NCBI GenBank assembly: GCA_037305845.1
Contig: CP147778.1
Location: 1,824,001-1,888,000, forward strand
Length of the DNA: 64,000 nucleotides
Source of the DNA: Candidatus Freyarchaeum deiterrae
Lineage (GTDB): Archaea; Asgardarchaeota; Jordiarchaeia; Jordiarchaeales; Jordiarchaeaceae
Direction: 5' to 3'
Shown: in pieces, positions 48,166 to 53,601 of the stretch
Layout of the letters: the number at the start of each line of letters is the position of its first letter
How positions within the stretch are numbered: the stretch's first letter is position 1
Notes under the pieces: generated by a model
Databases searched by the model: none
Seen by the model: the letters and a program-made list of their open reading frames with translations, nothing else
What the model was told of the DNA's origin: nothing
Position numbers and translations under genes: made by a program

Positions 48166-49296
48166 TCACCGTGTTACTATTGCCTTTTTTAAGGCTTCAA
48201 GAAGGTCGTGTGCTTCATTGTTTTCTTCAAAATGCCTCCTAACATTTTCCAATAGATTAATGAGCGCCTCCGCAGTGGCTTGCTTCAAATCCATGGGATG
48301 AAGATTACCACCAGCATAAGCTGATTTCAATTCGTCAAAACTCGTAAAGTCCACAGGCCCTCCGAATTTCTCCTTACGTTCCACATGAAGCTTAGAACCA
48401 TCTCTCGAAAGAAGGAGAAGCCTATTTATCTCGATTATCGGATTAAACTCCAACTGTTTCGGTGGGCAAAAAGCCGCTCCAATCTTCGCCCTTATATCCT
48501 CCGGCGTATCATGGATAAAAACAGCGGTCTGAGGCTTAGATTTCGACATCTTAGCCTCCATTAAAGCATCCTCATCCTCCTCCTCTCCCCCCTTTTTAAC
48601 ATCCATTCGTGATAAGCCCTGCAAACCAATCAGAAGAGGTGTATGAATAGCCACAGGCTTCCAATCCAAACCCAACTTGGGAGCCAACTCCCTAGCAAGT
48701 ACATGAGCCCTCCTCTGATCAGTTCCCCCCAAACACAACTTAAAACCAGAATACAAAATATCAGCAACCTGAATACAAGGATAAAGCGTTTTAGAATAAT
48801 CAGACTCCGCCTCATCCACCTTACGGCCCATAATACTCATAGCCCTCTTAACACGAGCAAGAGTAATATTCTTAGCAACATTAATCACCGTCCCCCAATA
48901 ATCCAAATCATCCATAAGATCCTCTGCTCTCTCAAACTGAACCCTCCCAGTATCTATACCCAGCGACTCCAAACAGTGCTCAATGTACCTCGCACACATG
49001 TGAATAGTATCCATGTCTCCACCAAACTTGTCATTAATCTTAGCATGCCAAGTTGCCTCGAGAACATGCACATCAGCATCAGCCAGAACCAAATCCTGAA
49101 GCTTCCAAGCCCAAACCACCCAACCTATATGAAATATTCTGGAACCATTAGGACAACTAAAGGCTTATCCAGAAGGCTCAACACCAATATAGGCTTTAGG
49201 ATGGCTTTCAACCTCAAACAAACTCTGCAAATCCTCAACCGTAACAACCTCATCCAAGCCACGCGAAACCATCTGAACCTTTTCCTCAGTATCCAT
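48166..49296 (-). CDS. tyrS: Tyrosine-tRNA ligase, intron-split: complement(join(48166..49136,49167..49296)), 366 aa
   Basis: GGAGG precedes ATG 49296. Splicing gives AYIGVEPSGLFHIGW (HIGH-type motif). YPCIQVADI, GGTDQRRAH and KMSKS lie downstream. Confidence 0.95.
49137..49166 (-). other. 30-nt BHB intron in tyrS mRNA
   Basis: T-CTGG-AT^A-AGCC...GGTT-CCAG-AA^T-A; the unspliced RNA reads an in-frame TAA just after the 5' junction. Confidence 0.88.
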
Positions 49297-50439: not shown

Positions 50440-51816
50440 ATGAAACTCCCAAAAGAAAATACAAACAATAAAAAGTCGAAAGCAGGGACACCACCCGCAC
50501 CACCGACATCACCCGCGGCAGGGACACCACCCGCACCACCGACACCCCTCGAAGGAAATCTAACCTTCGAAGCAAAGACACCCCCCGCAGCAACGCCAAC
50601 CCCCGAAGCAAAATCAATAATGGACGGTTATTCCGAAGAAGATAAAAAGTTAATAGAATTAATAATAGAAGTATATTCCCAAAATTTTATAGAAAAATTT
50701 CCTAAAAGAAAGAAGGAGGAGGAGGAGAGGGAGAAGAAGAAGTTAACGGAGGAGGAGAAGGAGGAGGCGAAGGGGAAGATCGAAACACTATTACTTATAT
50801 TGAGAGAGGAGGAGGAAGAGCAGGAGAAGAAGCAGAAGGAAAAGGAGGAGGAGAGGGAGAAAAAGAAGTTAACGAAGAAGCAGAAGGAGGAGGAGAAGCA
50901 GAAGGAGAAGGAGAAGGAGGAGGAAATGAAATCTCCACTGCGTGGACTTGCTTTGCTCTTTTTAGACTACGAAAAAGTCGAAAAGAAATATTTGCCCAAA
51001 CAAGAAAAAATAGAAGAAATAACGGGTAAAGGGGGACAAGAGGGGAAAGATCTCTATGAGTATATAAAAAATGAAATTTATGGAATCACAATTCATAAAC
51101 TAATATTAAAAATTTATGATCAGCGTCTCGAGAGAGTAACTGAAAGAAAGGAAAGAATCAATAAGAAATTGGACGAAATGGAAGACAAGAGTTACGGTTG
51201 GGTTGCTAAAAATTCCAAGAGATTATTTTGGATCGGTGTAGCTATTGTTTTTTCATCTATACTTATACCCTTAGGAGTTTGGATTTTATCCTCTTGGACA
51301 TTTTGGCAATTACTTAGTACTATTCCAGTATACGCACTAATTGCAACATCCACATCAACACCAGCAATATACACAACATTACCTGCAATAATCACATCAT
51401 TACCCTGGCAACAATTAAATAACACATCCCTAATCTCAGGAGGAATAGGCGGAACAGTAGGCCTAAGCACTATAATTACAACCTTGATTAAAGGAGCATT
51501 CCAAGAAATAAAGAGCGCCTCATTAGACAGAGTCCAAGTTACACTACTCCAAGATGCGTATCGTGACAAAATCAGGAAGATAACAATACAACTAGAACGA
51601 GATCTATACGATATAGTTGAAGAGAATCCGGCAAAGAAGAAAACGGAAGAGGAGAAAAACAATCAATGGAAGTATTTCTTTGATGTGGAAAAAAAATTTT
51701 ATCAAGATGAAGCTCAAATATATGAAGAATTAGCAAACGATCTACAAAAATACGTCGAAGGCATTATAAAAACCGAAAAGAGTAACAACAAAGATAGTAA
51801 CAACCAAAAAGAGTAG
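50440..51816 (+). CDS. Hypothetical membrane protein with Pro-rich repeats and Lys/Glu coiled-coil tracts
   Basis: AGTPPAPPT twice, KE-rich repeats, central hydrophobic segments; GAGGCGG upstream. Confidence 0.75.
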   Translation: MKLPKENTNNKKSKAGTPPAPPTSPAAGTPPAPPTPLEGNLTFEAKTPPAATPTPEAKSIMDGYSEEDKKLIELIIEVYSQNFIEKFPKRKKEEEEREKKKLTEEEKEEAKGKIETLLLILREEEEEQEKKQKEKEEEREKKKLTKKQKEEEKQKEKEKEEEMKSPLRGLALLFLDYEKVEKKYLPKQEKIEEITGKGGQEGKDLYEYIKNEIYGITIHKLILKIYDQRLERVTERKERINKKLDEMEDKSYGWVAKNSKRLFWIGVAIVFSSILIPLGVWILSSWTFWQLLSTIPVYALIATSTSTPAIYTTLPAIITSLPWQQLNNTSLISGGIGGTVGLSTIITTLIKGAFQEIKSASLDRVQVTLLQDAYRDKIRKITIQLERDLYDIVEENPAKKKTEEEKNNQWKYFFDVEKKFYQDEAQIYEELANDLQKYVEGIIKTEKSNNKDSNNQKE

Positions 51817-51984: not shown

Positions 51985-53601
51985 TCAGGTACCCTCAGCC
52001 CAACCATGAATATACGCATCCTGCTCTGGAGTCAGAACATCCAACTTAAGACCCATAGCCGCGCACTTTAATTGAGCCACAGTATTATCAATCGCTTCGG
52101 GAATATCCAAAACAACACTGCCCATCTTAGACAAAGACTCCCTGTTCTTGACAATATACTCTACCGCCAAAGCTTGGTCTGAGAAGCTCATGTCCATAAC
52201 CTTACCAGCCACATGCATAGTAAAAACTCCCAAAGGTGTTGGTTTATTGTGGGATGACATTTTTTGATTTGACTCAGTATCCCTCTGCTTAACACTTCTA
52301 CATAATGGTGTTAAGGGAGAACTAGAAATACTGGTCCACAATCCGCCACCACAGCAAGTTCACACATCTAGAAGTTTTAATTAAACATGTGGTCACTGGG
52401 GTGCCCCTCTGCACAAGCTAGATTCACAAGTCTGCCTTGTCCGAGTAGGTAAATTTTTCTTCCGTCTTTCATTGTGTATTCGTCGACTAGTGGTCTCAAC
52501 TCTCGTTTGCTGACACTGAGTTTCTCTAGGTCCGGTATGTTTATTTCGACATTGAAGTGCCCAGTGTTACAAATTGTCGCCCCGTTTTTGAACTTCTTCA
52601 TATGCTCTGCGTTAACCACGTTTTTACAGCCCGTAGCTGTGACGAAGATGTCGCCTACCTCAGCGGCTTCTATCATGGGCATCACATCGAATCCCTCAAG
52701 TGCAGCCGTTAGCGCTCTGTGTGGGCTAATCTCGCAGATGATAACTCTTCTGGCGCCTAGTCCCTTGGCTCTTATCGCTACGCCTCTACCGCAATGACCA
52801 AAACCAGCGACTACAAAAACTTTACCTGCTATAAGATCCGCTGTTGCTCTTAGTATGCCGTCGATGGTGCTTTGTCCGGTTCCCCACAGGTTATCAAATT
52901 TGGGCGCAAACACTTCAGCGTTTACGTTTCCCATTTTGTGGGGGTGTCGTTAGTGGCTAAAATCGGATAGAGTAATACATTATCTTTGGCCATAGCCCTC
53001 AACCGAACAATTCCGGCCATATGTTTAATAAAAACTCTCAGGGGCATTAATGATTTAACATATGGATTCCGGTCGTGGTTTCTTCGGCTCCGGCCCATAC
53101 GGTGTCTGCCCAGTCTTTTTTTTCTCCTAGGATTTTTTTGACTATTTTTATTTCTTCTCCTGTTTCTCCTCTTTTCAGTTTGATGAGTGTTGATACCAGG
53201 TCGGCGCCGTCGTCCAGAGTAATGTTGGGTTTCGCTTTGATTACGTTGGCTATTGCTCTGTAGTAGCCTTCGTGGTCCATTCCTTTCCAGCCGTAGGTGG
53301 ATATGCCTTCTTTTACCAGAGCTGCGACGACGTGGTCCTGTGTTGATAGTGGATTAGAAGCGCATAGGTAGACCTCAGCGCCGCCTGCTTTCAGGGTTTT
53401 CGCGAGCACCGCGGTCTCCTTGGTTAAGTGGAGGCATGCTCCCACTTTCACGTTTTTGAGTGGTTTCTCTTTGGTGAATCTTTGTTTTACTTGCATGAGT
53501 ACCGGCATGTGTGCTTCTGCCCATTCTATTGTGCTCTGTCCGCTTGGCGCCAATTTCATGTCTTTGACTTCGTATTTTTCTCCTTTTTCTGTTTGTGACA
53601 T
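51985..53601 (-). CDS. ahcY: Adenosylhomocysteinase, four exons: complement(join(51985..52202,52394..52898,52928..53010,53067..53601)), 446 aa
   Basis: Spliced product reads [10 protein letters not shown]...SNPLSTQD...DDGAD...[13 protein letters not shown]...[18 protein letters not shown]...[21 protein letters not shown]. Exon lengths 535+83+505+218 = 1341 nt. Confidence 0.95.
52203..52393 (-). other. 191-nt BHB intron 3 of ahcY
   Basis: ACC-CCAG-TG^A-CCACATG...CATGTGG-CTGG-TA^A-GGT; splicing restores H-P-S-E-V-M-D. Confidence 0.93.
52899..52927 (-). other. 29-nt BHB intron 2 of ahcY
   Basis: AA-TGGG-AA^A-CGTAAACGC...GTGTTTGCG-CCCA-AA^T-TT; splicing restores K-W-E-F-D-N. Confidence 0.93.
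53011..53066 (-). other. 56-nt BHB intron 1 of ahcY
   Basis: A-CCGG-AA^T-CCATATGTT...AACATATGG-CCGG-AA^T-T; splicing restores T-T-T-G-I-V-R-L. Confidence 0.92.

Follow-up and report, generated by a model that had tools for sequence, protein, structure and literature searches.

We propose that two of the three introns in the ahcY gene of Candidatus Freyarchaeum deiterrae are, very probably, insertions of a MITE that were converted into tRNA-type introns, with splicing predicted from sequence and structure. The ahcY locus would thereby document a sequence-level route for the arrival of archaeal BHB introns with the donor element identified, and it suggests a rule: a 7-bp target duplication (TSD) supplies the 4-bp helix and the 3-nt bulge of the splice motif whenever the target is palindromic, in either orientation of the element. 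In a BHB, a 4-bp helix separates two 3-nt bulges, one per strand, and cutting takes place after the second base of each bulge. The features are given below by their positions in the window, i.e., the whole analyzed stretch of 64,000 nucleotides.

51985-53601, minus strand: ahcY (S-adenosylhomocysteine hydrolase), four exons; spliced product of 446 aa; single copy in the genome.
53011-53066, minus strand: ahcY intron 1, 56 nt, predicted BHB intron; 1 nt of the left TSD, a 49-bp element and 6 nt of the right TSD.
53017-53065, minus strand: internally deleted MITE inside intron 1; 13 nt of the left TIR and about 25-33 nt of the right end.
53066-53072, minus strand: left TSD copy of intron 1, CCGGAAT; palindromic CCGG is the helix strand, AAT the bulge.
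53010-53016, minus strand: right TSD copy of intron 1, CCGGAAT; 7/7 identical to the left copy.
52899-52927, minus strand: ahcY intron 2, 29 nt, an older BHB intron; same site in relatives, no link to the MITE seen.
52203-52393, minus strand: ahcY intron 3, 191 nt, strict BHB intron by structure; missing in 10/10 relatives.
52209-52392, minus strand: full-length 184-bp MITE inside intron 3; 75-79% identity to copies in relatives.
52393-52399, minus strand: left copy of the decayed TSD of intron 3, CCAGTGA; putatively derived from CTAGTGA.
52202-52208, minus strand: right copy of the decayed TSD of intron 3, CTGGTAA; 4/7 identical to the left copy, 4/4 pairing with it.

The host genome comprises one contig of 3,576,204 bp, and its ahcY (53601-51985 on the minus strand), for which the closest named sequence comes from a Freyarchaeota MAG (90% identity), contains three insertions of 56, 29 and 191 nt. 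Excision of 53066-53011, 52927-52899 and 52393-52203 at the BHB cut positions, after bulge base 2, yields a predicted AhcY of 446 aa with a gapless alignment to intron-free homologues from Asgard archaea, and each exon shows purifying selection (pN/pS about 0.05-0.25). Introns 1 and 3 both present a 4-bp helix between two 3-nt bulges. On folding, the strict BHB of intron 3 is the minimum-energy structure; intron 1 forms the 4/4 helix and the inner stem with a weak exon-side helix, and its strict BHB lies 1.8 kcal/mol above the best fold. The ends of both introns are structural, not GT..AG, and the host is an archaeon, so that spliceosomal removal does not apply. Rfam covariance models gave 0 matches up to E=5, whether to a group I intron or to any other Rfam RNA. 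The host encodes two splicing endonuclease genes of the EndA family (PF01974), along with an rtcB-like ligase gene (genome position 1452824) that is interrupted by a BHB as well.

Introns 1 and 3 are not present at their sites in any of 10/10 relatives and thus are lineage-specific gains. At the site of intron 2, 5/5 genomes of the same genus carry an intron of 27-30 nt and G005 one of 20 nt; genus g2 has none. Intron 2 (52899-52927 in the window) keeps its position across genomes and varies in its interior: three relatives have an in-frame version of 30 nt, one relative a version of 27 nt and G005 a version of 20 nt, and in two genomes the length is 29 nt. The region 51985-53601 also displays a strong composition gradient, from an A/C-rich 5' half of ahcY to a G/T-rich 3' end, which recurs in the relatives and in neighboring genes. 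A 458-aa ORF convergent to ahcY (50440-51816) contains Pro/Ala as well as Lys/Glu repeats, and membrane segments are predicted in it.

Could these be ordinary, unspliced MITE disruptions with an incidental BHB shape, the affected genes being pseudogenes or else rescued by translational bypass or by excision of the DNA? A full helix does arise by chance on a given strand in about 13% of non-genic copies; however, ahcY is a single-copy gene in which all exons keep pN/pS up to about 0.25 despite frame-breaking introns, stem compensation is confined to intron 3, the same gene carries an older genus-wide BHB intron, and about 20 other BHB introns occur in mRNAs of this genome, one of them apparently at the cbf5 site. 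We consider unspliced disruption very unlikely and favor predicted splicing of the inserted elements.

The coordinates and sequences of introns 1 and 3 in a preliminary description of the locus proved correct, and its central observation, that the two introns have related ends, is confirmed: the 3' ends are identical at 22/29 positions, as originally counted, and the 5' ends at 11/14. The two ends are not independent of each other through stem pairing, a circumstance that would favor mere convergence of AT-rich BHB stems. Yet agreement is 20/23 at the positions free of this constraint, namely the 5' arm and a 10-nt block that is left unpaired in intron 1; the binomial p is about 1e-7 to 3e-9, hence below 1e-6, and 0/1e6 shuffles reach this level. 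Moreover, intron 1 retains a 3' block whose pairing partner is present in the long form only; preservation of this block without its partner is a sign of internal deletion and is not expected under convergence. Given that both introns also match an external family found in relatives, convergence has a negligible probability.

The CCGGAAT direct repeat noted around intron 1 is present as well; in the whole genome only two other 9-bp inverted repeats have a perfect 7-mer repeat around them. Some of the reported similarity has another source: the last 6 nt of each intron and the central helix, cited for compensatory changes, are copies of the host target rather than family homology, whereas the compensation in the inner stem is real and specific to intron 3. 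In the alignment, TIR position 4 forms an uncompensated C.A in three intergenic copies and a compensated C-G in intron 3 only.

The family to which both introns belong consists of elements of ~185 bp (170-190 bp) with ~22-bp TIRs and no ORF. The sequence of intron 3 matched two other loci in the relative G010 and one metagenome contig. TIR patterns yielded 24 hits in G008, 13 in G009, 7 in G010 and 4 in G007, with 0 in the other family, and a sequence model gave 33-81 matches per genome in G007-G010 (both strands counted) and intron 3 only in the host. The family is thus dispersed and multicopy, with empty orthologous sites, and is represented by two copies only in the host. Among 106 copies, 29 are flanked by a perfect 7-bp repeat and 52 by repeats matching at 6/7 or more positions, compared with about 1 for shuffled flanks; repeats of 4-6 and 8-10 bp are perfect in at most 4/106. 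The excess at 7 bp over other lengths indicates a TSD of fixed length, which is kept at 7/7 in intron 1 and 4/7 in intron 3. The targets share no motif, nearly all copies lie in non-coding DNA, and about 55 TSD-flanked copies are located outside genes, mostly without any BHB.

Within the host genome, blastn, patterns, nhmmer and a covariance model detected no further members, so that the proposed search of the whole genome and its relatives came out empty in the former and produced dozens of members in the latter. Pattern searches beyond the genus gave only isolated hits with 2 mismatches, which we take as chance; viral contigs matched neither the TIR nor the transposase, and a genome-wide TSD+TIR scan of the host and of G004 detected no second active family. 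A metagenome hit, L114, was rejected as a chance match. Copies in relatives are frequently clustered, being tandem, nested or <1.5 kb apart. At L118, L120, L132 and L154 they sit beside or inside the TIRs of other copies, or in tandem with a shared TSD, and L162 and L164 contain oppositely oriented copies in the same target, CATCACC, with similar upstream sequence. At L115 (2536-2720) a copy without a TSD has a nucleotidyltransferase gene on one side and, on the other, a CRISPR-like repeat that precedes a cas6-like gene. As read from these sequences, the family is active or recently active in the sister species and extinct in the host.

The probable partner of the MITE is an intact insertion sequence (IS) of 1,644-1,650 bp (L195/196/199/205) with matching TIRs, in which two ORFs meet at an A-run and together give a frame of 529 codons that contains D, D, CxxH and E motifs; the ORFs are probably joined by a -1 frameshift. 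A degraded 2.1-kb element with the same TIRs contains transposase fragments, and the left end of the IS, with an identical flank, is present in G010. The contigs of the IS with matching TIRs show no TSD, and their flanks differ between assemblies; a perfect 7-bp TSD flanks a related IS. Profile hits of the transposase are weak (IS256, ISH6, IS66), with ORF1 scoring 27 bits against a curated cut-off of 150 for IS256 and 20 against 240 for ISH6, which leaves it outside the named families; its Atlas neighbors are Mutator-type. The element thus shares TIRs, a TSD, the D-D-CxxH-E motifs and weak profile hits with Mutator-like DDE IS of the IS256/ISH6 neighborhood and their MITEs, but differs in hits far below curated cut-offs, a 7-bp TSD, and two ORFs with a probable -1 frameshift. 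A TSD of 8-9 bp is typical of elements of that neighborhood. We propose that a Mutator-like DDE transposase mobilizes the MITE in trans; a search of the host genome for a cognate transposase or autonomous partner detected none. L190 (962-2837), considered as a partner, was dismissed (31% identity, other TIRs); it is an intact IS of a related transposase family with a 546-codon frame, 20-bp TIRs and an 8-bp repeat. At L199/L200 the autonomous IS is located immediately upstream of a nucleotidyltransferase-HepT toxin-antitoxin pair.

From these data a path from insertion to intron can be proposed. Comparative genomics shows that the non-autonomous ~185-bp MITE enters as DNA and duplicates 7 bp of its target, giving target7-TIR...TIR-target7. 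If target bases 1-4 are self-complementary on the transcribed strand, the two copies would pair as the helix, bases 5-7 would form the bulges and the TIRs the inner stem; by computed folding, the BHB would be a geometric consequence of the palindromic start of the TSD. The host splicing endonuclease would then cut after bulge base 2 and an RNA ligase join the exons, in keeping with established EndA chemistry. Excision would take out the element together with one base of the left copy and six of the right, leaving one intact target and an exactly restored message, such that spliceable insertions could survive in needed genes. Deletion of the interior and drift of the TSD with pairing maintained may follow (194, 191, 56 and 31 nt, in a putative order). 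Introns 1 and 3 would be two such insertions, stranded once the family died out in this lineage.

The flanks of both introns can be read along these lines. The copies around intron 3 may have arisen by three transitions from CTAGTGA present twice, along a path that would stay paired through G.U and be synonymous in the exon; in relatives the site reads CAAG. Beside intron 1 (53067-53075 and 53002-53010 in the window) the exons encode TTGIVRL, as opposed to TTGVIRL in all relatives, and these changes may predate or accommodate the intron. The only two surviving copies in the genome lie 670 bp apart, both in ahcY; given the frequent clustering of copies in relatives, the most likely explanation is local hopping. 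The interpretation offered in the preliminary description is therefore partly supported. Its derivation of both introns from a mobile element stands, as does its view of the 56-nt intron as internally deleted, now from a ~185-bp element. Descent of intron 1 from present-day intron 3 is not supported, the right end of intron 1 matching other family members at 23/25 positions and intron 3 at 19/25; an ancestor of one copy may nevertheless have hopped, at the DNA level, to the other ahcY site. Continuing spread in this genome is likewise unsupported, with neither a third copy nor a cognate transposase found.

The two ahcY cases constitute the discovery set, so that only two in-gene cases in relatives are independent; both turned up after the model was formulated. 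The tRNA-Arg(CCT) gene of G010 contains a 187-bp copy in reverse orientation with a perfect TSD, GCGCAGG, a 4/4 helix and a strict BHB, at a site empty in five orthologues. In G006, a MoxR-like AAA-ATPase gene under purifying selection carries a 24-bp remnant between ATAGAAT and CTAGAGT; a 31-nt BHB cut restores the conserved motif DEIDKADIEFPNDLL, and five orthologues are empty. Here the helix pairs at 3/4, would have paired at 2/4 upon insertion, and the BHB is not the minimum-energy fold. Sense-strand helix pairing across the ahcY introns, tRNA-Arg and MoxR is thus 4/4, 4/4, 4/4 and 3/4, compared with 4/4 in 15/116 (13%) and at least 3/4 in 20/116 (17%) strand-cases of non-genic copies, and the joint chance for the two independent cases is about 0.02. 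In all four in-gene insertions, transposon sequence would have become an intron with co-option of its TSD.

The BHB shape of the in-gene copies and the strong folding of the intron 3 interior might suggest a mobile intron spreading either by homing or through RNA, with an excised circle being reverse-spliced and then reverse-transcribed, as has been proposed for tRNA introns of Thermoproteales; the preliminary description had envisaged spread as an intron or by a homing endonuclease. This is very unlikely, and largely refuted by the approximately 55 TSD-flanked copies outside genes, which mostly lack a BHB. Nearly all copies are intergenic and in either orientation, the tRNA copy is inserted in the opposite orientation, the family shares its ends with a DDE IS, and the alignment provides no support for a conserved internal RNA fold or any consensus structure beyond the TIR stem. 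The anticipated longer members do exist with an ORF, but it encodes a DDE transposase; a homing-endonuclease ORF was sought in introns 1 and 3 and is absent, and their targets are unrelated. The suggested comparison of insertion sites likewise revealed targets without a common motif and copies flanked by 7-bp duplications. Transposition as DNA, followed by predicted splicing, remains our preferred reading.

How far this route extends is a separate question. The protein genes of the host contain about 20 short BHB introns, nearly all ending in AA and with an A-rich 5' bulge, and G004 has at least nine BHB mRNA introns, most not found in the host (e.g., in IF2-like and small GTPase genes), with mostly palindromic or near-palindromic helices and, at two introns, 6/7 flanking repeats. 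Letters shared between helix strands exceed those in permutations that keep base-pair composition in G004 (25 vs. 11.6, n=9, p=6.5e-5), less so in the host (29 vs. 22, n=20, p=0.10), with a pooled p=5e-4, in a test chosen after data inspection on a list curated by hand; structure-only scans were too noisy for counting introns (99 candidates vs. 59-79 with wrong bulge sizes). The excess of helix self-similarity is no more than suggestive. A TSD+TIR scan found no donor element for the other introns of either genome, and the introns of G004 had no repeats within G004. The sizes of 194, 191, 56 and 31 nt extend down to the usual ~30-nt introns of the lineage. That 7-bp-TSD TIR elements are a general source of archaeal BHB introns, with many of the ~30-nt Asgard mRNA and tRNA introns being decayed insertions, is a tentative possibility, which we hold to be somewhat improbable at present. 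If true, it would explain the arrival of archaeal introns and constitute a prokaryotic equivalent of Introners.

Several further interruptions were observed in the host. In tyrS, a BHB insert of 30 nt (49137-49166 in the window) includes an in-frame stop, and a cbf5-like gene has a 32-nt BHB intron (GHSGTL^DPKV; G000:C1:1483415-1483446, minus strand), presumably at the site of the known crenarchaeal intron. ARAGORN recovers only 17 tRNA genes, a number compatible with extensive interruption by multiple introns, and tRNA-Arg(CCT) carries introns in the D-loop and the T-loop.

In the literature, a review describes the mechanism of intron transposition as unknown (PMC4090602), a gap that the proposed mechanism would fill. 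A complete wetland-soil genome has introns in 92-95% of its tRNA genes (PMC11291895), and an Asgard tRNA intron preprint of October 2026 (10.64898/2026.10.13.758758), which examined nearby mobile elements and donor matches but not TSD geometry, gives no general arrival route. Our search of the literature outside subscription journals yielded no earlier report of a TIR-element/TSD route to BHB introns. The cbf5 pre-mRNA intron of Crenarchaeota (PMC2738675) is likewise a tRNA-type intron in a protein-coding gene, but represents one old site in one gene, with no mention of a transposon origin. In Thermoproteales (Fujishima 2010, reviewed in PMC4090602), similar tRNA introns also occupy unrelated sites and gain at the DNA level is supposed; there the mechanism is stated to be unknown and no TIR, TSD or transposase is involved, whereas most members of the present family are not introns. 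The Caldiarchaeum model (PMC3293823) also ties a mobile element to the gain of BHB introns, except that an integrase delivers a ready-made intron within an att site, whereas here the element and its own TSD would form the intron. The nonconventional introns of euglenids (PMC11282704) share TIR-paired ends, TSD-like repeats and a proposed MITE origin, but are eukaryotic, with no BHB geometry described; for the introns analyzed here, the source IS is found. The closest parallel is intron gain driven by Introner elements of eukaryotes (PMC9860276, PMC12130899, PMC11282704), which are also TIR DNA transposons or MITEs that turn into introns at insertion, with the TSD forming part of the splice boundary and excision restoring the coding sequence. 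Introners depend on the spliceosome and GT/AG-type signals, in contrast to the structural signal and the 4+3 geometry of a 7-bp TSD plus TIR stem seen in ahcY; the present family is archaeal, yields introns at palindromic targets only, and most of its copies are not introns. The MITE introns thus work like an Introner but are not Introners, because there is no spliceosome: in the lineage closest to eukaryotes, a transposon in essential genes would potentially be rendered harmless by a protein splicing enzyme.
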